Source: Euglena gracilis (taxonomy: Eukaryota). From it: DNA of 64,000 bases. Under the pieces are notes generated by a model. That model did not search any database. It saw only the letters and a program-made list of their open reading frames with translations, and was not told where the DNA came from. Position 1 is the stretch's first letter. The number at the start of each line of letters is the position of its first letter. Positions 1,345-64,000 of this stretch are shown here, in pieces. The translations under genes were made by a program, and so were the position numbers. The DNA lies in contig CP154954.1 of assembly GCA_039621445.1 (NCBI GenBank), forward strand, positions 17,576,589 through 17,640,588, written 5' to 3'.

Positions 1345-33463
<32,119 letters not shown>

Positions 33464-35269: not shown

Positions 35270-37337
35270 CAGGGGTGTAGAAAGTGGGGGTCGGGGGGGG
35301 GGCGGCCGCCCCCGGGATTTTGGAAAGATATTTTTTTTTGGCATGAGTGTGATATTTTCCTTTGCAATGACATCATCAATGGTTCAAAGGGCGTCACCAT
35401 CTCGGCTGCCTTCGGCAGCCACCTTGCCAGTTAAAACCACATTTCTAGAAAATGAAATTGCAAAATCCATTACCGTCTCGGCCGCCTTTGGCGGCCGAAA
35501 TAAACCCCTTGAGGCTTGAAACCGTGTCTGGGGGCTCCGTTTTCATGCCCGAACCGGCGTCTGGGACGCCGGTTTGGGCGGGAAATTTCTGCGCCGAACC
35601 GGCGTCCCAGACGCCGGTTCGGGCCTGAAACCGGCGTCTGGGGGACCCAAAATAAAAAGTGCCAAAAAGTGTCCAAAAGGGTTTGTAGACAGGTGGCAAT
35701 CATATTTGAGCAGTTTTTGGGTGGTCTTGGGCCAAAAATTGGGTGTTTTTTGAGCAACAATTTCCTTTTGGCCAATTTTGGAGATTTTCTGAAATAGAAT
35801 ACCACGCAGCATGGCAGAAATCTAAGGCCATCTGCTGAAAGCCCTTGAGAAGAGCTTTCGATCGATGGGCAACATGGCAGCTGAAAAGTGGAATATCAGA
35901 CATGCAAATGGGGTCCGAAAAATGCGGAAAAATGCGATCGCTGATTTTGAGGGCGCTTTGCAATCTGGCTGAGTTCTGTGGGTACCAAGCGAAAGGTGTT
36001 GGCGAGACCTTTCGTTTGATATGCAATATGCAACCTGAACTGTGGGATTTGACAAATTAGGATGTCAAATTTTGGAATACACGATCGCTGAAAATAAGCG
36101 CTGTGTGCATTATGGCCGAATCCTGTGGCCATCTGTCGGAAGCCCTTGAGAAGAGCTTTCAATTAATGGGTAACATGGCTTCATAAGTGTGGAATCTGCC
36201 ATTTTTGAGCGGCGGCCCATTTGGGCCAAAGTAGCCCAAAACTACCCCAAACATGGGTATTTTGGGCGAAATTGGCCGTGATTCCTCAGCCGCCGGTTCG
36301 GGCATGAAAACGGAGCCCCCTAGCCACGGTTTCAAAAACTGTGTCCCAGACGCCGGTTCGGGCGGGAAACCTGTGCCTGGGACGCCGGTTCGGGCTACCG
36401 CCCGAACCGGCGTCCCAGGCACAGGTTTCCCGCCCGAACCGGCGTCTGGGACACAGTTCTCGATATAGATACTAATTGTTTTTTTTACCCCCCCCCTTAT
36501 TGTCCCACCGACCTCCCCCCGGGAGGCCCGACTGGACAATAAGGGGGGGGGGGACAATAAGGGGGTACCAAAGGAATTTTCATTGGCTGAGCCAAAAAAC
36601 CCCCCGTCGGCCGGGGCCGAGGGACAATAGGGGGGCGGGTGGTACCCATGATTTCGCTTTCTGGTTTGATTTTTTAGCATTGGAGGCTGGGTAGTCCACT
36701 TCGGGAACCCGGACTCCCCCTCCCCCCCTCCCCCTGTTCAGTTCACTTCGGAAGTGCACAGGGGGTCCCGAGACCCCCCCCCCCCCCGTGAACCTGGATG
36801 TACTTGTTCAATTCGGGAAAAAACCGAAAAACGGAACAACGTGCGAACACCGAAAAGGGCATTTTTCAAAAAAATTTCGGCGCCTTCGGCGCCGGACCCA
36901 CCCTCCTCCGGGAAGTCAACATGTCCAGTTCAGTTCGGAAGTGAACAGGGGAGGTCCGGGGACCCCCCCTCCCCCCTGTACCTGGGCTCCTTGGACTTCA
37001 AAGAGACGTTAGCGTCTCGGCCAGGGGTTTTTTTAAGGCCGGGGGGGGGGGGTCGGCACCCACCCACCCACCCCCTGGAGTGGGCCCCCCTCGGGGGAGG
37101 GGGGGGGTCCCGGAGGACCCACCCACTTTTGCCCGAAAATGGCCAAAAAGCGCCAAAAGTAGCAGCTTTCCCAAAATTTTCGGCGCCTTCAGCGCCAAAA
37201 AAAGATATACCCACCAGCCCCATTCGGGGCCAGGAGGACAGAAAAAAATACACTTTGGTTGTGCCAAGAAAATTTTTTTGGCTCGCCCCCCCCCCCCCCC
37301 CCCCCCCCCCCGGGAAAAAATTGTTCCTACACCTATG
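35270..37337. mobile_element. Composite hAT-like element (CAGGGGTGTAG / CTACACCTATG) holding nested insertions
   Basis: TSD CTTCCTGG/CTTCCTGC. Confidence 0.68.
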
Positions 37338-38255
37338 CTTCCTGCTGTACTCTTTTGCGGGACAGAGAACGTTACCATTGCCCGCATGACCTTCCCGTGT
37401 CCCAACTAGCATTGCGACGTAATTTACAAGTGTAAGTTTCGCGTGTAACTTACACGTAACATACAGCGTAATTAAATTTTAACATACGGTCGTTTAAGTT
37501 TTTGTTTTGCAGGGGGCTCATTTGGGGGGGGGGGTCGCTGAGCTCTTATCCCTTTATGGGTAAGAGCCAGCCCCACCCCGGTTCCCTTATTTTTTTTCAG
37601 TCGCGAGCGACTGGATTTCCTGTTTCCGAATCACCTGGGTTTGACCCCCAACTCCTTGCCATGCCCGAGTTATTCACGCGCGGGGGGGGTCTAAACTGGG
37701 TAGGATCGGCCCACCCCCCTTTTTAAGCCCCCCTTTGGACTCTGCCATTTCGGCCAAAAAAATGTCAATTTTCAAAATATCTCCAAAATGAAGCCAAAAT
37801 CAAAGTAATGTATGTAGACCTAATTTGAAGCCCTTGGAACGCCCTATCTACTGGTATTTTGATTTCCTCGCAACTCCCCGCGTTTCGGCCAATATGGCCA
37901 TTTTTCACACTTTTCCCACTCTTCGTTTTCGGGGGGGGGGGGTCAAAAATGAATGTTTTCAAACTTTCTCGAAAGTGATGCAAAATCAAAGGAAATGTCT
38001 GGAGTCCTAAATTGAAGCCCTTGGAACGCCTTATCCTCTGGTATTTTGGTTTTCACGCAGCTCACCGCCTACAAGATACAGCCGCTTTTCGGCCAATTTC
38101 GGCCATTTTGAACACTTTTTCCGCTGTCCGGCTTTTCCTTTTTGGGCCAAAAAATTCAAAAAATGGATTTTTTTTGCCCGAAACGATGTTTTTTTGGCCT
38201 CTCGTACCCGGACAAACTGTTTTTGAGCCGAAAATGAGCGTTTTTCCACCCCCCC

Positions 38256-43408: not shown

Positions 43409-46400
43409 CCCCCCCCCCCCGGCCTTGTTTCGGGGCACAAAACCCTTGCATTTCAGTCAAAAGAGCTCCATGGAGTGGGCCCTATTGATGTTGGGGGGGG
43501 TCAATGAAGGGGTGGGTCAGTCAAATGAATTCCTGGTTCCCTGGGGGGTCGGCACGCCGTGGCGAGCCGTCCGGCTAGGGGGAGGGGAGGGGGGGGGGTT
43601 TGGCGTGGCGAGGGGGTCCCGGATGGGGGGGGGGAGGGGTGCGCGGGGGTTTTCCAAGAAAAATTTCTTTGGCGCGGCTGACATGGCGTGGCGAGGGGGT
43701 CTGAAAAGGGGGGGAGGGGGGTAAAATGGCGTGGCGAGGGGGTCGGTGATGGGGGGGGAGGGGTGTGCCGACCCCCCCCTGGTTCCCCATGGAAGCATTG
43801 GCCTGGTCACATTGCAGGCCATGGGGAAGGGTGCTGCTATGTGCCAAGGAAACGGCCCGACAAACAGGCTCCGTCACTGGGTTGGCTGGTTGGGGGTGGG
43901 CGCACCCAGCCAATGATGCTCCATAATGAAAATCCAAAAATCGTCCAAAAAACAACAAAAAAAGTTCAATCCCCCCTCCCCCAATTCCATCCATCCTTAG
44001 GAGCAGCCCATACACAGGGGCAATTGCGTCTCTCGACGTACAGCACACCCACAGGTTCCTCAGCGTTCAGGCTTGGGCTCATGACAAGGGCCATTCCATT
44101 CCCCTCTGTCAGCAGGAATATGGGATTTTTTGACATTTTTTTTTTAAACACTCGAGTGCGTTCGAAGTGCCAACGTACCGGCTTCCTCACAGCCACGTCA
44201 GTGCTTCACCTCATCATGGCCACGCAGGGATTCTACATTAAGCCGGCGTTTGAGACGCCGGGCTCAGGACAGAACCGGCGTCCCACCCCACGGGCTTCCG
44301 GACGCCGGTTCTGTCCTAAAGCCCGGCGTTAGGAACACCGGCTTTGTCCAAAGCCTGGCGTCCGAATTTCATTCCTAAAAATGTCACCAAAAGTGCCCAA
44401 AAGTGGCCCTAAGGTGTTGGTATGACTGTTTCAACCATCAAGGACAATGAATTTTGCCATCTGGGGACCAGTGGGGTGGATACCAAATTTGTGGTATCCA
44501 AATTTGGTGAAAATTGGCCCAGATTTGGAAATAGAGTACCGTGCAGCGTGGAAAGATCTGATGAGCACCGCTGGTCGTCTGTTGAAAAGAGCTTTCGATC
44601 GAGGGGTAACTTGGTACCCTAACGTTGCACGCAGCCCGAGATACGCTCGCGATCGTCGGATCGGCCAGAATATGAGTCGAAATTTGTCTCAATTTTCAGT
44701 TTAAGATGCTTAATAAACCTTACAAAAACGTTTTTCCTCTTTGAATCAACGACCTGAGGGCCTTGGGGGGGCACCAGAGTTGTGAAATTAGGATTCCCCA
44801 GTGACAGAAAATAAGAGCTCCAGGCGACGTGGCTGAATTTGGTGGTGATCGCCAGTCGTCTGATGAAAAGAGCTTTCGATCGAGGGGTGATTTTATACCT
44901 GGACGATTGACACAGCCAGAAATACCCTCGCGATCGCCGGAATTTGGTGAAGTGCAAAGTGGTGTGACATTGCAGATCAGTGGTCGGAGATTGGTCCTGG
45001 GAGTGTCCTTGGGCCGAAGGTTGGGGACGCCGGTTCTGTCCTGAGCCCGGCGTCTCTAAAACGCCGGCTTAAACAAGAGGTGTCGGACGCCGGTTCTGTC
45101 CAAAGCCCGGCGTTCCAAACGCCGGTTCCGTCCGAAGGACGGAACCGGCGTTTGGAACGCCGGGCTTTGGACAGAACCGGCGTCCGACACCTCTTTTTTG
45201 TAGTAAAGTGAGGATTTTTTTCCCACCATTCTGGCCAAACGGTTTCGCAAACTGCCCACCTGTCTTGTTTTTTTCCAGCGGGTTGTTATCCCAAGCTGGT
45301 GATCTCCACAACAGGTTCCGCTCCTTCTTCCTGCCCACGTTCCACCACAACCACCTCGTCCTCTGTGATGGAGGATGCTGCAGCCTCCATTGCCAATACT
45401 GATGAAGACAAAAAATAGCCGGAAATTCCAAGTTCCTGAGCTCTCTGTCATTGCTTCTGCGGCAAGTGTTCTGTTGACCAACTTCCATACGGACAGAGGC
45501 TGTTGCTTCAAGGGTCTCTTGTGCAACACCTATTGCGAAATAGATTGCGCCAACTCGCAAAAACAAACCACATTTTCTTCGCCGTAGAGCAACATGTCTG
45601 TCATATCGCTTCACCAGTGCAGCAGTGGTATCAGCCGGTCAGAGGAAGGTGCACGCTAGGGTTGTGCCAATTAATCGTTTCGGGCTGGCGAACGATTAAT
45701 CGCGATTAATCGGGGTGTCTCGGACGATTACCACCCCCCCCCCTTTATTGTCCCACCGACCTGCCCCCGGGAGGCCCGACCGGACAATAAAGGGGGGGGG
45801 GACAATAAAGGGGTACCAAAGGAATTTCATTGGCCGGGCCAAAAAAACCCCCCGTCGGCCGGGGCCCAGGGACAATAAAGGGGGGGGACAATAAAGTGGG
45901 GGGGGTGGTAAAGATTAATTGGTCCCTTCCGATTTTTGATAGTGAAATCTGCCTGAGAATTTCTAATATCGAACATAGACCATTTCTTTGTGTGCCCGCT
46001 GACGAATTTTTGTTTCATTCTCTGTTGACATGGCAGAGCGAAGCTTATTAGGAACTGCTGTATCTAATCAGAATCACGCGATGTTTCATGGGCACGTTCG
46101 CTGACTCGTTGGCCACTTTTAACAACCGTTTTCATGGTGTACCAGCAAGTAGTGTGCTATCTGACTGACTACCCCATGAATTTTTGTTGATTTCAACAAA
46201 TATTGTGCCTATTGTGGTTTAGATCCACAATGAACGATTAATCGCCATGGGCCGAACGATTCGATTAATCGGCGATGACGAACGATCAATCGATTAATCG
46301 ATTAATCGAAACAGCCTTATGCACGCAAGATAAAAAGCTGGTCATGTCCACCAACTTGTCCCACTCTGCGCTGCATTCCAACCGCCTGTTGCCGAGAACT

Positions 46401-47644
46401 TGCTGACGCCCCGGCAAACACTATTTCCACATTCCTGCGGGAACGGACGTGGGAATCCCTGCACTTGCTATTCTGCTCTCCAGAATTGCTCTTTGGCCGC
46501 TCCTGCAAATAATTCTTCTCTCCAACGTGTAGAACACAATTTGTGGTTACAGGGGGCTTGAAAAACTTGTGGTATGAAAAGGTCTTGCGCAAAAGGATTG
46601 CGCATGGGAAGGTCGTGACAAGGGCCAGGGTCGCACATTTTTATCCCGCCGGCGCTTCAGTCGTAGGGGGGTGTTCCCCCCGCGTCCCAAACCACCCCGT
46701 AGTGTAAAAAGCGGCAGAATATATAACCACCCGGAGCGCCCTGCCGTACCCTAAATGGCTGGGTGAAAAACGCCTGAGGCAGCGCAACTTCAACAACAAA
46801 CTTCCATTTTTTTCTGCCCCCCCCATTCCACCACTTGGAACACTGCCAGATAGTCCCGGCATCAAATTCTTGTGACAGCCTTCATTGCCTAGTTGGGGTT
46901 GAAGGCTTTTGGAGTGCCACCCCGATGACGACCGTTTGACTCTGCAAAAGCTTGGAATAAACACATTGAGGACCTCCCCAGGTCGTGCACGTTACTTCAG
47001 TACTTCAGCAGTTTCCACAATGGCATGCGATGCTCACCCTGCTCTGTTGTTGCTTGTCGGCATGTAAGTGAATGACGTGTTGCGAGCATGCAAAATTTCG
47101 TCCGCAAAAATAGCAACATCTCTGCTCGGAGCTCTCATGGGAGGCACTGCAAAAAATTCAAAAAAATACATTGTGGTCCTCTCGAGATGGCGAAGCACAC
47201 TATATCAGAAAAGGGGTGGTGGACGCCGGTTTTGTCGTAAACCCGGCGTCCCTGGACGCCAGGTTCACAACAGAACCGGCGTCCACCACCCCTGTCTTAA
47301 AGCGGCGTTTTTGGGACGCCAGGTTCACGACAAAACCGGCGTCCCCAACCTTCAGTCAAAGGACACTCCCAGGACCAATCTCCCACCACTAATCTGAATG
47401 TCACGCTGCTTTGCATTTTGCCAAAATCCGACGATCACGAGCTTACCTCTGGCTGTGTCGGCTCATCTCAAGGTATGGGCGCAAGTCGATTGGGGGGCCG
47501 ACCGCCCAACACCCCCCGGACCCCCCCGGCCAAAATAACGTTGTGTGCAAGGCAAGGATGGCCCAAACACCCAAAACCACAAAATCCCTTGTGTGCCCAA
47601 AATGCGCACCCAGGGCTGGATATAGGGATATAGGGATATTGGAA

Positions 47645-47760: not shown

Positions 47761-50244
47761 CTTTCTCACCTCCTATCATAGCTGGTGTTTTTTTAAAAAA
47801 AAACGTTTTTATTTGTTTTTGTTGTTTTTTTATTAAAAAAAAAACGGTAAAAAACAGCAAATAACTAAGGAAAAAACGATGGTCCGAACTTTCCTTTTGA
47901 TCGCAAGGTTGAACCTGAAATGAACTGAAATGACTCAAAAACCAAAGAGTTTTGGTCCCTTTCCACAAAAATGGCCAAAATTGGGCATTTTTTTCCATTT
48001 TCACAATTTCTTGCTTAAACCGGCGTTTGAGACGCCGGGTTCAGGACAGAACTGGCGTCCCCCCCCCCCCCCACGGGTTTTCCAGACGCTGGTTCTATCC
48101 TAAAACCCGGCGTTAGGAACGCCGGTTTTGTCCAAAACCCGGCGTCCGGTTTTCATTCCTAAAAATGTCACCAAAAGTGCCCAAAAGTGGCCCTAAGGTC
48201 CTGATATATTGTTTCAACCATCTAGGACAATGAATTTTGTCATTTGGGGACCAGTGGGGTGGATGCCCAAATTTGGTGAAAATTGGCCCAGATTTGGAAA
48301 TAGAGCAAACCCGACCCCCCACTTATAACCCCCCCATCCTATAACCCCCCCCCTGCTTATAACCAAGGTTGACGGCTTGTTTTTTATAAAACAAAAAAAA
48401 ACATGTTTTTTTTAAAAAAAATATGTTTTTTTTAAAAAAACAAAAAAAACGTCATGGAGGGTTTGGGTGAAAAAATTTTTGAACGTTTTTTTAAAGGAAA
48501 AAGGTCATTTTTTTATCTCTGCAGCTTCGCAGTCCGTAAAGGGTGATGGCTTTCACATGAACCATCATTTTAGTATTTTTGGATGAAGGGTCTGGAAAAA
48601 CTAAAAAAAACGTTACTTTGATGACCAAAAACATGACTTTAGAACTTTTTCCTCAAAAAATGGCCATTTCGCAAGGAAAAAGGTCAATTTTTGCTTTTTC
48701 AAAAAAAAACATGTTTTTTTTGCGTTTTTTTTAAAAAAACATGTTTTTTTGTTTTTTTTTAAAAAGCAAAAAAAACGTCAACCCTGCTTGTGGCCCCCCC
48801 CCTCGGGCCCAAGCACTAAACCGTGACTTATACCCCCCCCCCCCGGAAGCCATGAGAAGGCAAAGAGAACCGCCAAGGCTGTAACCCCCCCCCCCCCCCG
48901 CTTATAACCCCCCCCTCGGGGCCAACCACTAAACAGGATCCTATAACCCCCGGGGGGGTTATAAGTGAGGGGGGGGTTTACCGTGCGGCGTGGAAAGATC
49001 TGATGAGCACCGCTGGTCGTCTGTTGAAAAGAACTTTCGACCGAGGGCTAACGTTGCACGCAGCCCGAGATACGCCCGCGATCGTCGGATCGGCCAGAAT
49101 CTGGGTCAAAATTTGTGGTATTTTTTCGTGATTTTTGGTTTAAGATGCTGAATAAACCTTACTTTTCTCTTCGAATCGACCACCTGAGGGGTCCTGGGGG
49201 GCACCAGAGTTGTGAAATTAGTATTTCCCAGTGACAGAAAATAAGAGCTCCAGGCGGTGTGGCTGAATTTGGTGGTGATCGCCAGTTGTCTGATGAAAAG
49301 AGCTTTCAATTGAGGGGTGACTTTGTACCTGGATGATTGACACAGCCAGAAATACCCTCGCGATCGCCGGAATTTGGTGAAATGCAAAGTGGCGTGACAT
49401 TGAAAATTAGTGGTCGGAGATTGGTCCTGGGAGTGTCCTTTGACCGAAGGGTGGGGACGCCGGTTCGGTCCTGAACCCGGCGTCTCTAAAACGCCGCTTT
49501 AAACAAGGGGGGGGGGGCGGACGCCGGTTCTGTCCAAAACCCGGCGTCCGCCCCCCCCCTTTTGTAGTAGAAACCATTCCATTTTGGTTCCATTTTTGAC
49601 CAAGCAGGGGGGGGACTCAAAAAAATGCTGCGAATGGAAGCAAATTTTTTTTTGCCCATGCCCCTCAATGGCTTTTTTGAAAAAAACTTTTTTTAAAAAA
49701 GACGTTTTTTTTTAACTTCGTTTTAAACAAAGTGCCAGCTATGTCTCCTATATCTCTTATATGTTTGGTAATGAAAGGGTTTTGAGGGAAAAGAATGGAG
49801 GTTAGGTATAGGTATACGTGGTGGACCTATACGTATGGGTGTTTTTCCAAACCTGTACCTCCAGCCCTGGTGCACTGTAATGAACTTAGTCGGCCAAAAT
49901 GAAAAGTGCCAAAAAGTGTCCAAATGGTTTGCTGAGATGTGGCAACCTTATCTGAGTAGTTTTTTGGGGGCGGTATTGACCTGCATTTGGAGTATTTTTG
50001 TGCAATAAATCCTTTTGGCGATTTTGGGGGAATTTAGAAAATCAGAACACCATACAGTGTGGCTGAAACCCGAGGCCATCTTCCGGCTGCCCTTGAGAAG
50101 AGCTTTCAATCCATGGGTAACATTGCAGGGGAACAGTGGAATTTGGAATTTACAAAAAAAGGGCGGAACATGCGATTGGCGCCCTGCGAAGTGTGGTTGA
50201 GCTCTGTGGGCATCATTTGAAAGGTCTTGGAAAGAGCTTTCTAT

Positions 50245-51210: not shown

Positions 51211-51628
51211 CAGGGCTGGATAGAGGGAGAGGGATAGAGGTAGAGGTAGAGGTAGAGGTAGAGGTTGAGGTCACCTCTACCTCTACTATCCCTCTATGTC
51301 ACCTCAATGTCAAACTTTTAAGGAAAGTGGCTTATCAAAGAAAATATATGTCGAACGAAGGCAATTTTATGAAAAAAATCAGAAATTGACCATTCTTGTG
51401 ACAAATCTCTTATGGCAATTTTGAAACCACCCATCCGGATATTTTTTCTCATTCCTAACCTAAATAAGATGTGTTAAGATGCTAATTTGCCAAATTTGAG
51501 GCATTTGGAGCCTTTTGTGGCCCCTTATTGGTGCCAGTTTATAACATTTTATGGTAGAGGTAGAGGTAGAGGTGGGTCAGATGGAGGTAGAGGACTTTGA
51601 CCTCTACCTCTACCTGTATCCAGCCCTG
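51211..51628. mobile_element. MITE with TIR CAGGGCTGGATA and (GGTAGA)n arms; apparent 7-bp TSD
   Basis: Flanks TCTGTAT/GCTGTAT; related element at 47611-49869 has (GGTATA)n. Confidence 0.72.
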
Positions 51629-52920
51629 GCTGTATGGTGCCCGAAGGGTGGGATTTCTCAAATTAATATGTCACGCCGAAAATGGGCGCAGTGTGCATTT
51701 CTGTGGCCATCTGCCGAAAGCCCTTGAGGAGAGCTTTCAATCGATGGGCAAGGCCATGTGTCAAACAGGGATAATTTTTTAAGGGAAAAAATCCCCAAAA
51801 ACTTCTTCCGGAATCCTTCCGGAAACAAACTTCTTCCGGACCCTGATCCGATCTGAAGGATCACGACTTTCCCCGAAAGTGGGGCCCATGTGGTTCCACC
51901 CCGCCGGATGAACCATTTGTCCGTATGAACCATTTGTCCGTATGCTGTCAAGTTTAATCCCCCATGTTTATATTCAGGCAGCATTTCAAGACCCCCGGGG
52001 TGTTTGCAATTGGAGGGAGTTATGTCTGTGTTGAAAAAATGAACCCTTGGGAAGGTTGCGCTTGTTTTTCAATACGGGTTGGTGGTCGAATCCACCAACT
52101 TTTCAGCGGCATTCTTGACTCTGCCCCCCCCCCCCGGGCGGCGTACAATTCGTCCCTGCCACGATGGAGCCAAGGGGTGCTTGGTAAAGAAAACCTCCTC
52201 TCCCAAGGCTTTCCAGTCTTGTCTGTTGCCCCTTCCTTTGCTGGGTCAGCCCATGGAAGCAAATATGTGAAAACTTCAATCGGTGGATTTTTTTCTTGAG
52301 GGGGGGGGCTAAAAACACGCATGGGCGGGCAAGGACTGTGTTGGGCGGTCGGATCGGCTTGGCCGGCTCATCCGCCCAAAGTCGACTCGACCACCCGTGC
52401 CCAAGCACCTCTGGTGATGCTGGGCGATGCTGGGCGATGCAGGGCGATGCTGGGCGATGCTGGGCGATGCTGGATTTTTGGAGACCAGAGGTGGGGTTCC
52501 GATGCTGGGCGATGCTGGGCGATGCAGGGCGATGCTGGGCGATGCTGGGCGATGCTGGCATTTTTTTTGTATATTTTGGAGAATTGAACCATTTTTGGGA
52601 TAATTTTCCCACAAAGCTCCAATTTTCCACCCATTTTGGCCATTATGGGTCAATTTTTGCTAATTTTGGGGCTATTTGGCACTGATTTGGCAAATATTGG
52701 GCAAACTGGGGCTGTTTGAGCAGATTTTATGGCATTTTTGGCCATTTTGCGCCTTTTTGGTGATTTTGGGTCATTTTTCACCATCTTTGTGGACATTGTT
52801 GGTGTTTTTGGGCAATTTTTTTGGTTAATTTGGTTGCTTTTTGGGGCTTTTTGGGGTCTTTTGGGCTTTTTGGGGCCATTTTTTGGGCTTTTGTGGTTAT
52901 TTTGGCTTGGTCAGTAGCCA

Positions 52921-53590
52921 AAGGATGAATACTGGACAGATACTGTACAAGATGCAGATGCTGGACAAGATGAACTGGATGCAGGCACTGGACAAGATGC
53001 AGATGCTAGACAAAGATGCCGATGCTGGACAAGATGAACTGGATGCAGACACTGGACAACATGTAAATGGTGGACAAGATACTGGACAAGATGCCGATGC
53101 TGGACAAGATGAACTGGATGCAAACACTGGACAAGGTGTGGATGGTGGACAAGATACTGGACAAGATGCCGATGCTGGACAAGATGCAGATGCTAGACAA
53201 GATGCAGATGCTGGATAAGATGCCGATGGTGGACAAGATGAACTGGATGCAGACACTGGACAACATGCAGATGGTGGACAAGATACTGGACAAGATGCCG
53301 ATGCTGGACAAGATGAACTGGATGCAGAAATTAGACAACATGTAGATGGTGGACAAGATGCAGTTGCTAGACAAGATGCAAATATTGGACAAGATGCCGA
53401 TGCTGGATAAGATGAACTGGATGCAGACACTGGACAACATGCAGATGGTGGACAAGGTACTGGACAAGATGCCGATGCTGGACAAGATGCAGATGCTGGA
53501 CAAGATGCAGATGCTGGACAAGATGCCGATGCTGGACAAGATGAACTGGATGCAGACACTGGACAACATGCAGATGGTGGACAAGATGCA
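52921..53590. repeat. Minisatellite built on GATGCTGGACAA / GATGCA units
   Basis: Direct inspection; lies inside the MULE-like element. Confidence 0.92.
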
Positions 53591-56500
53591 TCTCCCTCCA
53601 CCCTCCAGCGCAACAACTGCTTTGGACTTTGTTTGTCTGACTGGCAAGAGACTTGCAATTTGCACTCAATGTTGCCATCTCACAGGCCTGCACCACATCC
53701 TGTGCCTACAAAAAGCAGCAAGAGTGGTCAAAAAGTGGTCAAAAAGCAAGCAAAAATGGGGTAAAAGTGGTCAGAAAGCAAAAGTGGTAAAAAAAAAGTG
53801 GGCAAAAGTGGGCAAAAGTGGTCAAAAAGCAGCAGAAGTGGGCAAAAAAATGAAAGTGATCAAAAAGCTGCAACAATGGCCAAAAGTGGGCAAAAAGTAG
53901 CAAACATGGCCAAAAGTGGTCGAAAAGCAACAAAAGTTGTCAAAAGTGGTCAAAAAGTAGGCAAAAGGGGCCAAAAGTGGTCAAAAAGCAGCAAAGGTGA
54001 TCAAGAAGCTGCAAAGGTGGTTGGAAATGGGCAAAGGTGGGCAAAAAGCAGCAAAAGTGGTCAAGAAGCAGTCAAAATTGGTCAAAAGGCAGCAAACATG
54101 GGCAAAAGTGGTCAAAAAGCAGTCAAAAGTGGTCAAAGTGGGCAAAAAGCAGTCAAAATTGGTCAAAGTGGTCAAAAAGCAACCAAAGATGGCCAAAAGT
54201 AGCCAAAAGTGGGCGAGAGCGGCAAAAGCAGCAGGCATTATAAGTACACCTTCAAGGGCTCCAAAGGCGATGGTGGGCGATGCTGGGCGATGCTGGGCGA
54301 TGCTGAGCGATGCTGGGCGATGCTGGGCGATGCTGGGCCCAAGGGCATGGCTGACCAGAGGTGCTTGCCCGTGCCCAAATGGAGCGAGTCGATTCGACTG
54401 GTTGGGCCGACTAGTCGACCCGACCGCCCAATCGACTTGTGCCCATTCCTTGACTGACGCCGGCTGTGTCAATCGTTCAGTACAAACTTGCCCCTCAATC
54501 AAAAGCTCTTTTCATCAGACGACTCGTGATCACCACCAAATTCAGCCACAGTACTCCCATTTCTTGTCCCAGGGAAGTCCTAATTTCACAGTTCTTGTAC
54601 CCCCCTGGACCCTGGTCGTTGATTCGAAGAGAAAAATCGTTTTTCTATGGTTCATTAAGTGTCTTAAACCAAGCAGCACCAAAAATCACCACAATTTTCG
54701 ACTCAGATTCAGGCCGATCCGACGATCGCGAGCGTATCTTGGTTTTGCTTCCAATAAAAAGTATCTCTCTGAAAACTCCTTTGGTGTCTCGATTTCGGTC
54801 GGTTCGAGTGCCGAGGCCACTGAATCACGAACTTCCGAGGAGTCAGGAGGCGATGAATCCGAGGAGTCAGGAGGTGATGGACCCGAAGCTGATACTTTAT
54901 TTTTTGGGGAGGGTTTGTATTTGGTCAGCCCCATTTATATCGAGAACTGTGTCCAAGACACCAGTTCGGGCGTGAACCCGGTGTCCTAGTCACTGATTTC
55001 ACGCCCGAACTGGTGTTTTAGACACAGTTCTTGAAACCGTGTATCGGAGGCTTCCGAACCGGTGTCTAGGGACGCACGGTCACGTATTGCTTCCTTGGCA
55101 GGTTTTTTTCTTAATGACATCGGCCAGGTTACTACCGTGTGCACCAGTGTGCTGCCCCCCACCCCAGCAGAATCTTTGGCTAGTCTTGAGGCCGCCGCCG
55201 CACCTCTAGCAGCCCACTCACTTTTGTTTGGGGAAACATTTGACAACAGTTGCCCCCATGGTGGTCTTGCGAAAGGCAAAATGGTGGTGCTGGCAGCTGC
55301 CCGGCATTTCCAAAAGGTTTGCGAGCTGCGTGGGGCAACATTTGACGATTGGCTCTTGGCATTTGCTCTTTGGACGGTAAAGGTCACGTGTCTTTTGATC
55401 ACGGTGACGAGAAGCAACAGGCAGCCACCGCCCAACGCGAAGAAGTTTGTTTTAATGCCAAGGTGCAGGATCGGTCCTGGTTCCCTTCCACGTTGACCAC
55501 GATGGTCAACGCTTTGGCTGCGTTGTACAGGGAAGCGCCCTCCCATGTCGGCTCGTTTGTGCCTTCGGTGCAGTCACATAATCCACAACTTTGTGCTTTT
55601 TTCAATGCTGCTTCTCTTCCGAAGGAGATGAAAGCGAAGATGGAGTTGGGGGATGCGGACCGCTCTCCAAACTGTGGGGGTGCCATGGGCCTCTGTGGCG
55701 GCAAGCGTAAAGTCGTTTGCGATGTCTGCCACTTGCCAGCATTGCGCCTGTGCAGGGTTGGTCATCCCCTCCCGTTACGGGTCCTGGATGTGCCCTGAAG
55801 GTAAATAACTAGCCGTGTCTGATCCCTCAGACAAAACAGTTGCCTTCGTTTTAGTGCTGCGGCTGTGGTACTGTCCGGTTTGCCTTATTGGGCGTTTCGC
55901 ACCTCTTTGCACCGAATTCCAAATGAATCTGGCCTTTTGCATTTCTGTCCTGTTTCTTCAGTCCAAGTCACCGGTTTCCCGCCCGAACCGGTGTCCAAGA
56001 CACCGGTTCGGATGTGAACCCAGAGCCTCCATACACGATTCCACACTCGGGGGGGGGGGGTTGTATTTGGGGGGGGTTATATTTGGGGGGGTTTAGGTGA
56101 CCTTGCAGCCCTATGGGACGAATATCACCAAGGCTCCCCCAGCCAAAGAAAGAGCACATCGCCACTCTCCCGGCCGGCTGGCTGGAAAAAGCCGGGTCCA
56201 GCCCAGCAGCCAGGTTCGAACGACCTCCCTGCACCTCCACCCCCTGTCGGTGGAGGGTCCAGGGAGGTCGTTCCTGAACTCCCTCGAATGAACGGGTCCA
56301 GCCAACACCTTTTTTGGACCCGAAACAGGCCCAAATCTGGGATGCATGTTTATTATTATTATTATTTAATTTTTTTGAGGTGACCCCCCCCCCCAAATAA
56401 AAAGAACAGGGATTCTTGGCCATTTTTGACCCCCTTTTTCAAAAAATTCACCGATTTTTTTGGTCCAGCCTGGCTTTGCCGGGCTGCAAAAACTTTATTA

Positions 56501-58040
56501 CCGGGGGGGGGGGTTGCGGCCCGGCTGGGCGGTGCTGTGGGAAAAAAGGTTCTTGCTGGCTGGACCCCCAGGGGGGGGGGGTCCGGCTTAGGAAATTCCT
56601 TGGTTTCAGACCAAGAACAGTGTTTTGGGCCAAGGTTTTCGGGGGTCCTGGGCGACCACGGCACCGCGGTCGCCCATCGTTCGTGGCTACTGTGGCCATT
56701 TTATGGCCATAGTCAAATTCATACTGTCCCAACACACCTCTTTTGCTTTGCCGCTTTTCGGTCATTTCAGGGTCAATTTTTTTCAAAAGTATTTTTATTA
56801 TGTTTTCTCGAAATGATGGGAAATCAAAGAAAATCACAAAAAGACCCCAGGCTTTTCTGTGCAGACTCTGTGCAAACTGCACAAATTGTTCAACACTAAG
56901 TTCCAGGCTTCAATGACGGGGAAAAAAATACCAACTCTATCCACCGAAGAATGCCTATCCTTAAAAAAGAGTGAGTTTTTTTGTCAACATTTCTGGTGGA
57001 CATCCCCATCCCTCGTCTTCAAGAAAGGATAAATGGCCGATTGGCAGGGGCTGTTCAGATGTTGGAATGGTTTTCTTTTGGAAATGATATTTTTGCCTCC
57101 CCCAAGAAAACAATAGACTCCTGTGAATATCGATGGTACAAACAATTGGGCACTCACTATTTGCAAATTTTTGCTTTCATCATTCACCATAACCCAACCC
57201 CATTTTTGAATTTTTGACGACCAAACTCAGCCAACGGGCAACAATCTTTTTTACTTGCAGTTGATGACAATAATTAATGGATGTATCTGTCAACTTCTGA
57301 CTCTCTTGTTTGTGGTGCAATGTGTTGCGGATCGTGAGATCAGAAGGCAGGTCCCTTTTCAGGCACACGTGACATGATTAATTTGCAATATCAAAATTTT
57401 GAGAAATGAAAAATGCAAGATTTTTTTTTGCATTCCATGTCATTTGAATTTTGATTGCAAACTTCAATTTGAATTTTTTTTTCAATTCAATTATATCTGA
57501 AATTTGTAAATTTCAATTCTCATTTGAAATTTATACATTTCAAAATGAAATTGTTTTGAATTTTCAATTTTGAAAATGAATTTAGAAATTTTAAATTCAA
57601 AATGAAAATATTCAATGAAATAATTGAATTTTAAATTTCAAATTGTGAAAAGAACTGATTTTCCTCTTGTCCTTTTAATTCACACACATTCAGATACAAG
57701 GCTGGTATCGTTGGGAACCAAAAAAATATATAATTTAGAAAATGTTTACCCATTATCCATGATGCCTCTGGGGGTGGTTCGGGTCACCGGGGGGGGGTCA
57801 CGGGGGGGTCACGGGGGGAACACCACATTTTAGGCGGCCAATTAGGAATCACCGAGCACGAATTTTTGGGGAAAAATCAAAAAAACTAGGAACTAGGAAT
57901 CTTCACACCTAAAATTAGGAATTTGACACCAAATTAGGAATTACCATCCCCAAATTTACAGAGAAAAAAATGTTTTTTTTGCCATCTCTTGTGCACAGCG
58001 TCGGAAGTGAAAATGTGTAAAGTTGTTTTCTTGCTTTCAG

Positions 58041-58067
58041 CAACCCCTGTTGGCCAAGAAAGGAACC
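58041..58067 (+). CDS. Possible upstream CLPTM1-like exon (NPCWPRKEP)
   Basis: Strong acceptor ttttcttgctttcag|; joining CC+A gives PCWPRKEPLDVQLF, plausible for the family; no GT donor found. Confidence 0.3.
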
Positions 58068-59479
58068 TGCTGGAGAACGCCGCTACAACCCAAATCACCA
58101 GCCATCACCGGTTCAACGAGAGTATGAACCATTATTTGCGAAGGGTGCCTCAGTCAGGCTGGTGTTCACATTTCAGCTCAATAAAGGGGAGGGAAGTTGT
58201 TTCGCATTTTTTTTCGCATTTTTTATTCGCATTTTTTCGCGCATTTTTTGTAGTTTTTTTTTTCAGCTCATTTTCTTGCTCCTTGGCGCATTTTTTTCGT
58301 GGTTTGCCCATTTTTTTGCTTTTTTTTTCGAAACTGAAACTTTCATCAGAATTCCGTATGATTGTTATACATTTGCTGCCATTTTTGCGTGCGTTTTGGG
58401 TAATTTTTGCATTTTTTTTTGAATCTGCATTTTCTCCCAGACTTTGTACATTTGGCTTATTTTTTTGGCATCTTTTGCGCATATTTGCACATTTTTGTGC
58501 ATTTTTTCGCAAGGCCAGGCTGACGCATTCCCCCCTGCTGAAATGGTTTCTGTGCTTGGAACACTGGATTGGTTTGTTGCAGAGGAATGGACCGTCTAAC
58601 CTCTCAAAAAAATTGGCCTTTGATTTGATGAAAATTTAGGGTCACAACTTTTATTTTTTTAACAAAGCATTTTGTGGCATGCAGCCTGGGAGAACCATGG
58701 AAAGGAATGGTATCTTTTGATGACTGTTGACACCCCCTTCCCTTGCCCATGGGGGTGCGTACGACCCCCCCCCCCCCACCCCCGTGGTCGGGGGATTGTA
58801 GCTGACGTAGCAAAAATAGGGTTTTTTGGCACCTGGTCGTACAACCAGCCCCTGGTCGGGGGTTGCAGGTCAGGGGGTGCGTGAACACCCCCCCGGTCAG
58901 AGGTTGTGGGGTCGGTGGGGGGGGGGGCAGGCTGCAATTTTTTTTTTCAGGTTTATTCTTGATAATTGGAAATTCATTCTGGATATTCTAATTTTCTGTT
59001 GGAAATGATTTGGCAAAATGTCTCCTCCTCCTCCTGGGCCTTGCTCCTTGTTTTCGGAAGGAAATTACACCAAAGCCCCAAGCTGCAGGCATCTCTGTTT
59101 GCGTCTTCTACGTCTTCCAGCGGAAATGACTTCCAAAGAAACGCAAAAATGGGGACGTTCAACTTTGCATAACTAGCGTGCAGAAAAAAAATTGCAAAGA
59201 CTTTTGCACGACTTTTGCCTGACTTTTGCAAACACAAGGACCTTGTGATGCGAGCTCGTGTTGCGAACGTCCCACCTCGCCTGTCAAAAGTCTTGGGTTT
59301 TGGGGGCAGGGGGTTTCTTAAGCCAGAGGGGAGCCGACCCCTGGGGGAGAGGTCCAGCTAGCTTTCACTTTTTCCCCTTCCAGGCAGCACCTTTTCCCAG
59401 CCGGCTGGCTGGACTCCCCGGGTTTTTTCCCTGCACTCTCCTGTTTGGGGGGTAACTCTTGCCGCACCGCTCTGCCGTC

Positions 59480-59648
59480 ATTGGACGTCCAGCTCTTCTT
59501 AAAACGAGACCCGAACTGGACGGCCGTCGACTTCGGTGACCCAAGCCTGCACGTCTGGCGTGATGTGGTCGTCTTCGACTCCGCACAGGACCAGGCGCAG
59601 CACACCTACCAGCTGGAGGTCCCTGTGGATGAGTACTTGGCGGGTAAC
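59480..59648 (+). CDS. CLPTM1: CLPTM1-like exon (LDVQLFLKRDPNWTAVDFGDPSLHVWRDVVVFDSAQDQAQHTYQLEVPVDEYLAGN)
   Basis: GC3-rich open frame; 5' boundary uncertain (CTG-CCGTC|A nonconventional type, or AG at 59399-59400). Confidence 0.8.
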
Positions 59649-62600
59649 GGGCAGGGCTGAACGGCATTTCTTGTGGTGGTGGTGGGGACCCTAGAGGAAG
59701 GGGGGTTCCGACCCCCACCTCCCGGGTGACAAATGCACACAAAACATTAGGTTGTGCTGTTGTGAACGGCGAAAGCACAAAATGCAAATGGCGATGCCAT
59801 TCTGAGTGCGCAATTTTGCTTTTGTGAGGATCACATGATCCATTGTTTTTTTTTTTTGGGTGGGGAGGCAATTTGCAAACTGATTTTTTTCCAGAGATAG
59901 GGGGGGGGGGGCGACCCCCAGCTGGCCCTCCCGTGCAGCCCTGGCAACGGGTCACTCTGGATGCACATCTTCGTTGCGCAGCAGGGGACGGAGTTGGCCG
60001 CCGCGGATGAGAAGAGGATCATCCATCCAGGCATTTCTCGGGTACCAAGGGTATTTCTTTCAATTCATTATTCCCATTCTACCTTCTGATGGAGGTATGT
60101 CGGCTTGGCTTTGCTTGAGAGAAAATGAAAAATTCTGCCATTTCACATAGGAAATTTGGTTTGTTTTATTGCCCCTCGAAAAATTGTTTTCACACAAGTG
60201 ATGCAAATTAGCTTTTTACAACAAAATCATGCGTCCCAAATTTTTCCTATTGGCCCTGGAATCGTATGCGAACAAAATTATTTTCTCACAGATCCTTCTT
60301 GGCTCCACATAATTTTCAAAAGCGAACTTTTGAATTGGACCACAATGATGACTCAAAATTGATCACATTTCTTCCCGGAATGGAACGAATAAAGAATCTG
60401 CTAAGAACAGACGAAAAACCCATATATTGCAAAAATTGCGCCCCGTTTTTTTTTTGCCTTTGTGGGGGGGTAAACCTGAACAAATTTTTCTTGTTCCTTT
60501 TTTTGCATGTTCGGAATCGCTGTGAAATGTTGTGTCTTTAATGGGGCACAAAAATACGTCTGAAAGAGGCTTGTTGACTGTTATTTGAAGGGAGGGGGAG
60601 GTGGGGGGTCCAGGGGGGGGGAGGCACAGGCTCCGGCCACCTCCACGTACACAGACAAAAGGGCCAGAGGCGAACAACAGCGCCAGGCCAGAAGAAGGGA
60701 TAAAAGGCACCAAAAAACAGCCACAGTGCACACAGGGGGGGAGGCGCAGCTCCCCTCCCCTCTCTCCAGGCGCATCCAAAAACTCATCCACTTTGCCATC
60801 TCCCTTGGAAGCACCCCCATGTGTGTGTGGGGGGGAATTTGCTAGTGGAGGCGCCAATTTTTTGCAACAACTCAACCATTCTGCAGAACTTTTCATTAAT
60901 TCTGTAAAACCGTCGAAAATTTCATTTTGACGCGTTTTGAATTAAAGAAGATGTGTATTTGAACCCACTTTAACATGTCCCTCTGTGATATGTGTGTGCC
61001 TAACACACAAAAAACTCTCTCAGGTTTTGTTTAATTTTCCCCCCAAGAATAAATTGTGCGGTTTCCATTGAAAATGGTCAATACGGCATTTTATGAGAAC
61101 CATCAAAACAACGGCAATGTGATCCTTATTTGTCACCCCTTTGGGCTCCGCAGACCTCCTTGGTGACAAGGTGGGTTGTCAGTAACCCACCCCCAAACGG
61201 CCTCTTTTTTCCTGGCGCCTTCAGCGCGCTAGGAAAGAATCTTCTGTGTGCATTTGGTTTCATTAGCACCCACCCCCTAATCGTCAGGGAAAACGATAAG
61301 GGGGGGGGAGTCACACACTCTCCTCTTGCAAAATACACCATTTGCCTGAAATTAGCCAGAGATTTGTGTGGTTCCTCAAAACGGCTTCTTCTGTTTTGTG
61401 AATGCAATTCTTTTTGAGAACCACTTCTGTCAAAAAGGGGTTCTCCCCATCAGGAAAGATAGCCTGTCTACACGCTGTGCACCCGTTGGTGAAGTTTTTG
61501 CCCAAACAGGAGTGTTCCCGAACCCTTTGCTTCCGCTTGCCACCAGCCCTCCATCTCCCACACCCAATCACCATAAGCACTGGTTCTCCCCAGTCTGGGC
61601 CACCTGGTGGTTGGGTTGGGGAATTTTTCTGGTGTCCTACTTCGCACTTTTCAGCAATTTTTTTTTTGCAAATGACTTTTTGTTTGCACTCCAATCCTTG
61701 TTGAAAGAAGTGACATTTCCTGTTTTGTGTTTTTTTCATTCCTGGCAGATAGATGCCCCTTTGGCAGATGACTTTTTGGGGTTTTCCCCTGCTGGTGGCT
61801 CGTTTTTGGCGATGTTTCGCGGCCCGAGCATGAGTTCAAACACATGCAAACCCCCTAAAAAGACACCGGCACTCTCGAAGCATGCCCCTTTTCGAAGCAC
61901 CCCCTTTGTGGAAATCTGGACCCCCATTTTTTTTGTTGTGTTTTCCTGCATGGGCATCTGGACCACAAGACAGGGATTAGGGAAGATAATCCATGGGCTT
62001 GAGAGGCGTGAAAGAAGGGCAGAGGTCAGAGGTGTTTGCAGAGTGACAGAGTGACTGAGTGCTGGATGACTCGGCTTCGTCACTCGCAAAGCACTCAAGT
62101 GAGTTCCAGGTCTCTATTTTCCATGTTCCCTTGCATGGTGGAAAATAAAGGTCTTTGCTTCATGTACTCACACCTCAGTCAAAACAAGAACACCTCCTTT
62201 TTGTTTTCTTTTTTTCATTGTTGCCCACGTGCTGCGTGCTTTGTTTTGAACTTTTTTGTCCTCACTGCGGTGCCTCAAGACGGATCCTGCCGGCAGACAG
62301 AATTTGCACACAGCGTCATGTCCGCAAAAATCAGGGGTTATATTGCAGGGCCAGTGAGGGGTGGGGTGCCGGTAAATCTAAAAAGTGAGGTGCCTGAAAT
62401 TTGAAACATGCTGCTGAACTGTTGAGAATGTCAGCCATGCCACTCTCTTTGACAATTTCCACTTTCCTGAAGTGCTTTTCAATGGCGATGTGTCTGGCAA
62501 AGGGCAAGTGCTTGAAATCCCCGCATCCCCATCCCCGTATTCCACATCGGGAACCATTTTCTGAGTTGTTTCCCTTCGAAGAAATACAGGCACAATTAAA

Positions 62601-63623
62601 CCAACTGCTACGTTCTGACGTTCCCATCACAGGCATTTTATACCATCTTACATATCGTCCATCCGTCCGTCAAAGATGAAAAGAGTTCCGCTGTCTCGCA
62701 GCCTGACAAAGAAGGGTTGTTGCACCCACTTCGTCAAACATCTCATTTACATGCCTGACCAACAACAGAAAGCGACCACATATTTTGGTGAACCAACACA
62801 CCTTTTTTGTGCAAAAAACCCCTGGTAATTCTGACGTCCTTCCGTCACCTGCTGGAACAATCTAATTGTTGTTCAAATGCTGTATGGGGGCGTAGGCCGT
62901 ACCAAAACATGAAACATGCTTATTGAAGGCTGTCTTGGACACATAAAACCTATTCTGGAAAAGGGGGCAGAAAAAACCGGTCCACATCTTCGGCAACGGA
63001 AGGCGTGTTGTGCCAGCAGTGATCACAAATTTGAAACTAACCACCACAAAACATTTTTTTTGTACTTCCAGACCTACCCCTGTTTCTCACAGCCTTCTTT
63101 TGTTGACGCATTGGGAGTCATCCACCACAACAAACTCGATGTTTTGGACTAACTTAGGTTCAAAAATCCCTGAAAGCGACCCCTAAAACCGCCTTTTCTT
63201 CCTGTTAGTTGCACAATTGCGTACACAAGGTCCAATTTTACGCGTGAAGTGCGAAGGTGACTGCCTGAGAGTATGAGTGCATCCCTTTTCAGAGAATGCG
63301 GGCTCTGAGGCCGATGTTGAGGTTTCGACCCACCTTCTTTACCCTCTCGGTTGTAGGTTTGCTCGCCAGTTTCTGGTGTTCGTAGCCTCATAATCCATCA
63401 CCAACCCCCAAAAGAAATCTAATGTGTGTTTCAAAGTGTGCAGCGCGAACCCCGTGTCAAATGGAGTTTTATTTTTGTTGCTGTTTACGTTGCACAGGCG
63501 GCTGCTGCAACCCGGCACCTGTTTGGGGATGCTGCTGCTGAGGACGTGCCTGCCGTGGAGGACGTGGTGCCAGATGTCTGGGTCCCCCACTGGAAGCCGA
63601 CGTTGTCCTTTGCCCTCGTAGAG
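59480..63623 (+). CDS. CLPTM1: Partial multi-exon gene, CLPTM1/CLPTM1L family membrane protein (N-terminal lumenal region; both ends unresolved)
   Basis: Colinear motifs LDVQLFL...VWRD...LEVPVDEYLAG-NGSLWMHIFVAQQG and TRHLFG...WVPHWKPTLSFALVE match the CLPTM1 pattern (L.xxVY ... NGS/TxYxHVF ... NLL ... SxWxPxxTxxLV), recognised from memory. Confidence 0.8.
59649..59948 (+). other. Nonconventional intron = TIR element 59652-59943 plus one 8-bp TSD copy
   Basis: GTAAC|GGG-[CAGGGCTGAACGG...CCGTGCAGCCCTG]-GCAAC|GGG-TCA; TIR 12/13, TSD 7/8; TGA in frame at +10; removal restores GNGSLW. Confidence 0.87.
59949..60024 (+). CDS. CLPTM1: CLPTM1-like exon (GSLWMHIFVAQQGTELAAADEKRII; 3' end 60024 or 60030)
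   Basis: NGSLWMHIF motif; donor either N3-CAG type (C|ATC-CAGGCA) or G|GCATTT. Confidence 0.8.
63293..63321 (+). CDS. Possible short CLPTM1-like exon (xNAGSEADVE)
   Basis: atcccttttcag| and GAG|GTTTCG; phase-0 end fits the next exon; no motif support. Confidence 0.4.
63498..63623 (+). CDS. CLPTM1: CLPTM1-like exon (AAAATRHLFGD...DVWVPHWKPTLSFALVE)
   Basis: gttgcacag| and GAG|GTGCCC; HWKPTLSFALVE motif. Confidence 0.82.
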
Positions 63624-63759
63624 GTGCCCCTTCCCTGTGCTGGAATCCCAGCCCCAGGAACAACCGGCCTCTTGCCTCAAACTTCATTTTCCTTCCATAA
63701 TTTGTGCACCTCATTCTCCATAATCAGGAATGCAATCCATGTGCACAGACACGAAATTT

Positions 63760-64000
<241 letters not shown>

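Follow-up and report, generated by a model that had tools for sequence, protein, structure and literature searches.

The locus and the interrupting element

In a 64,000-nucleotide stretch of the Euglena gracilis genome (contig CP154954.1 of assembly GCA_039621445.1, forward-strand positions 17,576,589 to 17,640,588; referred to here as the window and numbered from its first letter), a coding exon of a plus-strand gene of the CLPTM1 family is interrupted by a 292-bp element at positions 59652-59943. By inspection of the sequence, the element ends in terminal inverted repeats (TIRs) and lies between two copies of an 8-bp target site duplication (TSD), with which it takes up 308 bp (59644-59951). 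The element is exactly removed from RNA, and we consider it very probable that it is a short nonautonomous DNA transposon that was inserted into the coding exon and is removed as a nonconventional intron, a type of intron that has been described in euglenids for decades. The coordinates of the features are collected in Table 1, and papers are given by their PMC numbers.

The identity of the host gene comes from P0003, a transcript-derived protein of 579 amino acids (label EG_transcript_7062) with 100% identity to the upstream exon and a match to the CLPTM1 family of Pfam (PF05602) at an E value of 3.4e-123; two exon peptides (P0001 and P0002), when taken singly, matched 0 Pfam families. A tblastn search distributes the first 189 residues of P0003 over six exon pieces within 57260-63624. 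P0003 runs unbroken over the insertion site (...EYLAGNGSLWMHIF...), where the frame entering the element reads ...VPVDEYLAGNG and the frame leaving it reads SLWMHIFVAQQ.... A first-pass annotation made from the letters of the window had described the element as interrupting a CLPTM1-type NGSLWMHIF motif, and both the flanking frames and P0003 bear this out, with the insertion lying between ...AGNG and SLWMHIF... of a CLPTM1-family gene.

The same annotation had described a 292-bp element with 12/13 TIRs and a TSD, all of which are present where it had placed them. The two TIR arms were recovered in a repeat search as an inverted pair of 13 nt with 92% complementarity and 266 nt between them, and they pair in the minimum-free-energy fold of the intron. 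The direct repeat copies match at 7 of 8 positions, with the sole mismatch at position 2. Read-through from the upstream exon gives CAG GGC TGA, and the T of this in-frame stop codon falls at +10 when the intron is taken to start at 59649, again as annotated. The list of open reading frames (ORFs) holds no credible ORF for the 292-bp element, and an Rfam search of 59400-60100 gave 0 matches at an E value of ≤1, so that no known small RNA was found inside the intron. Near its left end, the element carries a palindrome composed of a G run, CGAC, and a C run. This motif has 6 sites in the window, 4 of which lie within the element and a second element at 31365-31986 that is described below; among 20 shuffled sequences, 19 gave no site and 1 gave a single site.

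Table 1. Coordinates of the interrupted gene, the interrupting element, and two sister elements in the window
Feature	Position	Strand	Remarks
CLPTM1-family gene, part within the window	57260-63624	+	RNA contigs of X15 and X17; tblastn of P0003; extends past the window
mRNA pieces of the gene	57260-57342, 58073-58149, 59478-59645, 59946-60023, 61471-61505, 63494-63624	+	Leftmost placements; joints slide by a few bases
Upstream exon	59478-59648	+	Last bases ...GGT AAC (code register); identical (100%) to P0003 residues 53-110; RNA pieces
Downstream exon	59949-60024	+	Purine G first; encodes (G)SLWMHIFVAQQGTELAAADEKRIIH
Left TSD copy, GTAACGGG	59644-59651	.	Bases 1-5 remain in the mRNA (code register)
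Left TIR arm, CAGGGCTGAACGG	59652-59664	+	Its CAG is the essential 5' motif, intron +4 to +6
Right TIR arm, opposite strand reads CAGGGCTGCACGG	59931-59943	-	12/13 versus left arm; contains the essential 3' motif, CTG at -8 to -6
Right TSD copy, GCAACGGG	59944-59951	.	The downstream exon opens with bases 6-8
In-frame TGA	59658-59660	+	Ends the ORF 59322..59660, the reading frame of any unspliced transcript
Subterminal G-run/CGAC/C-run palindrome	59700-59716	.	48 nt from the left end; 3 similar motifs in 31365-31986
Nonconventional intron, code placement	59649-59948 (300 nt)	+	GGG-CAG...CTG-GCAAC
Sister element, 397 bp, arms CAGGGCTGGACGG / CAGGGCTGTGCAG	23848-24244	-	Perfect 8-bp duplication GCCCGATC; inside a coding exon
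Sister element, 622 bp, perfect 13/13 TIR CAGGGCAGAACGG	31365-31986	.	Perfect duplication ATCAGGGG; non-coding

Removal from RNA

The fate of the element was followed in sequencing runs mapped to 56900-63700, namely, a DNA-like run (X1), two small RNA-like contig sets (X15 and X17), and raw RNA reads from a cDNA library (X21), of which about 5% of the run was sampled; the DNA and RNA labels of X1, X15, and X17 are guesses made by a program. A soil metatranscriptome (X20), with a 0.12 share of the words, was left out of the analysis. A joint from 59645 to 59946, which skips 300 nt and can slide 6 places, is present in one X15 contig, one X17 contig, and 18 raw reads of X21 (7 + 11, with 15 start places). 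The depth of this joint in X1 is 0, and both junctions between the element and its flanks are covered in that run at ordinary single-copy depth, in pieces spanning 59342-59661 and 59725-60620. The mRNA retains the T at 59645 from the left repeat copy and loses the C at 59945 from the right copy; this is the cDNA that the annotation had predicted, with T at TSD position 2. In X21, the intron falls into two bins, whose summed depths are about 2.1 and 5.8. The exon bases within these bins would by themselves give roughly that depth, and there is no sign of intron retention in that run.

Fit to the published nonconventional-intron code

For the nonconventional introns of Euglena, knock-in mutagenesis has yielded the code 5'-N3CDG-/-CH'GN5-6|R (Nomura et al. 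2025, PMC12501133), and a consensus of CCAGG at +3 to +7 and CCTG at -9 to -6 has been reported for E. gracilis (Gao et al. 2024, PMC11170887). Additionally, a pyrimidine|purine pair has been described at both junctions of such introns (Milanowski et al., PMC4770533; restated in a review, PMC11282704). Only one of the seven RNA-compatible placements of the intron studied here combines N3-CAG and CTG-N5 with an exon that begins with a purine. In this placement, the upstream exon ends at 59648 and the downstream exon starts at 59949 with the purine G. The intron then carries CAGG at +4 to +7 and CCTG at -9 to -6, and its base +3 is a G, unlike the C of the consensus. Both junctions (59648|59649 and 59948|59949) read C|G, which is the pyrimidine|purine pair that the first-pass annotation had noted.

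The agreement with Euglena nonconventional introns (PMC12501133, PMC3935182, PMC4770533) extends over the CAG at +4 to +6, the CTG at -8 to -6, the 3-nt and 5-nt spacers, and the purine exon start, and it also includes arm pairing beyond the CAG and CTG, the lack of GT/GC-AG ends, borders that slide along a direct repeat, and exact removal from the mRNA. There is no difference in kind, and what sets this copy apart is that it is unusually well kept, with arms that match at 12/13 and a repeat that matches at 7/8 positions. The annotation had presented the element as an intron with the architecture of a MITE, or miniature inverted-repeat transposable element, and this holds for its anatomy and its removal, but it is no new discovery, as the element is an example of the known nonconventional introns of euglenids. 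These introns are reported to be removed without the spliceosome and to be released as full-length circular RNA (PMC11282704), and by analogy the same route and product would be expected here.

The interrupted gene itself offers a comparison. None of its five introns within the window is conventional, and four of the five fit the code, each at a single slide position; besides the one formed by the element, these are the introns with exon borders at 57344/58075, 58151/59480, and 60024/61472. The arms of the element match at 12/13 and its flanks at 7/8 positions, versus 7-10/13 and 2-5/8 in the other code-fitting introns of the gene, and such better-kept arms and flanks would look like the pattern expected of the youngest insertion. 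The remaining intron, intron 5 (61506-63493), is 1988 nt long and can slide 5 places. None of its 6 placements fits GT/GC-AG or N3-CDG...CHG-N5|R, the nearest being GA...AG, and it is either a nonconventional intron beyond the published signature or an intron of an intermediate type.

Sister elements in the window

Elements of the same build occur elsewhere in the window. A strict scan of the whole window (a CAGG start, TIRs matching at ≥11/13, and 8-bp flanks matching at ≥7/8 positions) found 6 elements, including the one in the CLPTM1-family gene, and found 0 in every one of 30 Markov shuffles. In a looser scan (CAG...CTG ends and TIRs at ≥9/13), the flanks matched at ≥7/8 positions in 9 of 1231 pairs; 50 shuffles averaged 0.62 such pairs and never gave more than 3. 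A bare search for the 13-mer is weak when taken alone: it gave 6 matches where 2.56 were expected, and this number was reached in 4 of 100 shuffles. When direct repeats with at most one mismatch were sought beside CAG...CTG elements, 9 elements were found at a repeat length of 8 and none at lengths of 9, 10, or 11. The nine elements lie at 2305-2565, 7435-8415, 7840-8151, 23848-24244, 24597-25325, 29867-30316, 31365-31986, and 35711-38219 (which has weak arms) and at the site in the CLPTM1-family gene; two of them sit in coding exons, and the others are in non-coding DNA.

Most of these elements fall within a minus-strand gene for a multifunctional fatty-acid-oxidation enzyme, which runs from 33463 to at least 1342 and thus over more than 32 kb. 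The gene map is based on P0004, a relative's transcript protein with 78 to 100% identity per exon and with matches to Pfam families PF00378, PF02737, and PF00725; four gaps in the map were skipped. A homologue search for the organism's own transcript of this gene returned only P0004 (78% identity) and a genome-predicted fragment, P0007. Nine of the 11 junctions evaluated in the gene allow GT-AG, one is formed by the element at 23848-24244, and one fits neither rule. The two neighbouring genes therefore contrast in intron type, with mostly GT-AG introns in the minus-strand gene and none that are conventional in the CLPTM1-family gene. The exception at 14968..14239 on the minus strand, which fits neither the conventional nor the nonconventional rule, was mapped with the relative's protein P0004 only.

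The element at 23848-24244 splits the reading frame of this enzyme between ...TPRLIG and LQNAL..., and it fits the same 5|3 code register, with the exon ending at 24248 and starting again at 23842. An independent replicate of the architecture on the opposite strand, as the first-pass annotation had proposed, does exist in this element, with a perfect 8-bp repeat and the same register. Judging from the continuity of the coding sequence in P0004 of the relative, it would likewise be removed from RNA. Six further elements (31365-31986, 29867-30316, 24597-25325, 7435-8415, 7840-8151, and 2305-2565) lie between mapped exons of the gene, in non-coding DNA; that at 31365-31986 is in the intron between exons 32229-32182 and 27925-27779. 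Two of the six form a nested pair, with a 312-bp CAGGGCGGTCCTT element (7840-8151; arms 13/13) inside a 981-bp CAGGCTATTG element (7435-8415; arms 12/13), and each of these has 8-bp flanks that match at 7/8 positions.

The annotation had assigned the elements in the two genes to the same family, and this stands for the termini, and for the subterminal motifs, which are held in common, but not for the interiors, which are unlike. The element in the CLPTM1-family gene and that at 31365-31986 match over 46 nt at 78% at the right end and share the G-run/CGAC/C-run palindromes, without a common interior. Within the window, this 46-nt stretch is the only match of the former to the listed elements beyond the 13-nt arms and short G/C runs.

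Origin of the intron and alternative explanations

The transposon origin of the intron is suggested by the combination of TIRs with a TSD of fixed length, and it is in line with the literature, in which a MITE-like origin was proposed for these introns in 2014 (PMC3935182) and in which the 2025 code paper still regards the origin as unclear (PMC12501133). By its termini, the element looks hAT-like. Elements of the hAT superfamily have 8-bp duplications, short TIRs, and a YARNG-type terminus (with CAGGG or TAGGG starts), and the element has the 8-bp duplication and the CAGGG terminus; no search for a hAT transposase was made. It resembles hAT elements such as Ac/Ds in these two features and in that the insertion into an exon is tolerated through loss from the RNA. 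Ds can reportedly be spliced out of maize transcripts. In the case of Ds, splicing is carried out by the spliceosome at cryptic sites and is usually imprecise, unlike the removal described here. Merlin elements, for which 8-bp duplications are also known and which have been reported in E. gracilis (PMC8101967), have GG termini, unlike the CAGGG of this element. No paper that links Euglena nonconventional introns to hAT or to the 8-bp duplication class was found in the open-access literature.

Several points weigh against this reading. Mobility is indicated by the TIRs and the TSD and by nothing else, and the hAT-like label draws on nothing but the CAGGG termini and the general consensus for hAT ends, with Merlin elements having been reported in the same organism (PMC8101967). 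The interior of the element looks single copy (X1 depth of about 210, compared with about 125 to 180 in adjacent contigs) and has no similarity to the interiors of the sister elements. No transposase-like frame stood out by eye among the 174 ORFs of ≥110 amino acids, on which no family search was run. Neither an empty site nor an insertion polymorphism was seen in the one DNA run, X1, which carries the label "DNA?" and whose contigs can miss rare variants. The fold of the whole intron is no better than that of shuffled sequences (z of -0.90, with 18 of 100 shuffles folding equally well), so that only the terminal stem is notable, and no back-joined (circular) read was found among the joints listed for the X21 cDNA at the sampled depth. 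Furthermore, RNA narrows the cut only to 59645-59651 (possible intron starts, 59646-59652). Because the repeat copies differ only at position 2, no RNA of this intron can reveal the cut site; the duplication, being redundant, masks the true register in the mRNA and would also mask it in a circular product. Of the 5|3 register given in the first-pass annotation, what stands is that it is the only one of the seven placements to match the published code, and the exact register would follow from the published mutagenesis (PMC12501133) rather than from the RNA, which leaves the whole range.

A different origin for what would still be a nonconventional intron is offered by double-strand-break repair, in which case the 8-nt repeats would be products of the repair, the inverted ends would have been kept by the needs of splicing, and no transposon would be involved; we regard this as unlikely. 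Repair has been suggested for a recently gained intron with 8-nt direct repeats in gapC of Euglena agilis (Milanowski et al. 2016, PMC4770533), and the single-copy interior, unlike those of the sisters, agrees with it, as does the list of ORFs, in which no transposase stood out (without a family search). Repair, however, would be expected to give repeats of varying length, and the length is exactly 8 in nine elements, with none at 9 to 11. Several of them are located in non-coding DNA, where splicing should impose no constraint that would keep perfect 13/13 arms such as those at 31365-31986, and a duplication of fixed length beside inverted termini is the signature of a transposase. The gapC intron in question (intron 4 of E. 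agilis ACOI 323, PMC4770533), as compared by description only, is similar to ours in being a young nonconventional intron with eight-nucleotide repeats at its junctions. In contrast to that case, in which the repeats were read as traces of break repair, the sisters with exact 8-bp repeats that accompany our element are found outside coding sequence as well, and this favours transposition.

Two further alternatives concern the joined form itself. It is very improbable that this form stems from DNA copies that lack the element, through an empty allele or somatic excision, and not from RNA splicing. A single DNA run was examined and contigs can miss minor alleles, but the depth of the joint in that run is 0 and both element-flank junctions are there at single-copy depth. 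All 14 DNA-like runs that hold this stretch carry 0.75 to 0.93 of its sampled words, whereas five small RNA-like runs carry 0.34, which is near the exon share of the query, and the register is also that in which three more introns are removed from this transcript. Moreover, excision of a transposon normally leaves a footprint and not an exact single copy of the repeat. The chance that the intron is a conventional spliceosomal one, using the GT at 59644 or a cryptic GT/GC...AG pair, appears smaller still, close to nil. A GT is indeed present at 59644-59645, and at one of the slide positions the intron would start with GC. The mRNA, however, retains the T at 59645, and the GT at 59644 is therefore excluded as a donor, unless the reads are misplaced; its use would have made this a conventional donor in the terms of the annotation. 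None of the seven allowed placements (AA-GC, AC-CA, CG-AA, GG-AC, GG-CG, GC-GG, and CA-GG) ends in AG.

Proposed mechanism and its implications

Taking the element as a transposon removed as a nonconventional intron, we propose that a CAGGG-ended element would have been inserted by cut and paste into the exon of the CLPTM1-family gene, duplicating 8 bp of the exon. In the pre-mRNA, the two arms would pair and draw the intron ends close to each other, and a Euglena-specific machinery would then cut 3 nt ahead of the CAG and, at the other end, 5 nt past the CTG, where a purine follows, with the exons being joined. As 3 + 5 = 8, the stretch removed would equal the element together with exactly one duplication copy, and the mRNA would therefore regain the sequence that preceded the insertion, in its original frame. 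The CLPTM1-family gene would still work because its pre-mRNA loses the insert as a nonconventional intron.

In light of this, it is conceivable, although we put it at somewhat less than probable, that the 3-nt and 5-nt spacers of the code are the RNA-level image of the 8-bp TSD of one class of CAG-terminated transposons. If this were so, the splicing machinery would undo the insertion in the RNA, most of the nonconventional introns (themselves the majority of Euglena introns) would descend from elements with 8-bp duplications (hAT-like or Merlin-like), and the excision system would have coevolved with, or be derived from, that transposon class. The 3/5 rule (PMC12501133) and one case of an 8-nt repeat (PMC4770533) have been reported previously, and the excerpts of these papers neither join the two nor name a superfamily. 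Our addition is a modest one, namely, that CAG-terminated elements with a TSD of exactly 8 bp are found both as nonconventional introns that split exons and as plain insertions and that the register equals the length of the duplication.

Similarities to elements in other lineages can also be noted. Introners of Micromonas, Aureococcus, and dinoflagellates are likewise short MITE-like elements with TIRs and TSDs that sit in exons and are lost from the RNA (PMC11282704). These are spliceosomal, and their GT/GC-AG sites are taken from the element or from its duplication, which is typically 3 to 5 bp (PMC11282704), whereas the element in the CLPTM1-family gene has no GT/GC-AG sites, an 8-bp duplication, and the Euglena-specific code. 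Since nonconventional introns are reported to be the majority in the genome, one more would not surprise specialists. The value of this one is that of a clean specimen, in which the transposon anatomy is nearly intact, removal is seen in RNA, and older, decayed introns are at hand in the same gene. In this regard, the window gives concrete support to the MITE-like origin put forward in 2014 and suggests a testable rule, according to which the two spacers add up to the 8-bp duplication.

Further observations on the gene and the window

At the start of the CLPTM1-family gene, a loose end, ATTTTTTTTC, precedes 57260 in X15 and also in X21 (7 reads), and it resembles what we take to be the tail of the Euglena spliced leader. 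The window has an A at 57270, and a G is found there at all depth of X1 as well as in the contig from X15 and 5 of 12 X21 reads. The G changes residue 3 from Ile to Val, P0003 carries Val, and the difference is one of strain or allele. Within the element itself, an X1 contig whose depth is ordinary (153.9) follows the window as far as 59726 and rejoins it at 59922, and 34 different letters stand between these two points. This could represent an allele or a paralogue with a shorter and different core, or it could be an assembly tangle at the G/C-run palindromes.

Two introns of the gene contain high-copy sequence. In intron 4, the summed depth of X1 contigs at 60532-60758 is about 871,000, against about 150 nearby, and this stretch is seen in RNA as well (433 in X17 and about 7 per strand in X21), with many loose ends at 60627, 60657, and 60714. 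It looks like a very high-copy, transcribed repeat. A second such stretch, at 57581-58034 in intron 1, has an X1 depth of about 60,000 to 98,000 and contains G-run repeats.

Elsewhere in the window, inverted pairs with CAGGACAGAAC or CAGGGCTGGAT termini are found at 44265-45043, 48042-49473, and 51211-51628, all of which failed the 8-bp flank test. Similar ORF fragments recur at 44622-45068, 47301-47630, and 49109-49498, which suggests another repeat family. At 52416-54338 and 63760-63999, there are long tandem arrays of degenerate sequence (periods of 10, 18, 30, and 129 to 174), with a (CA)n microsatellite, about 120 units long, at the end of the window.

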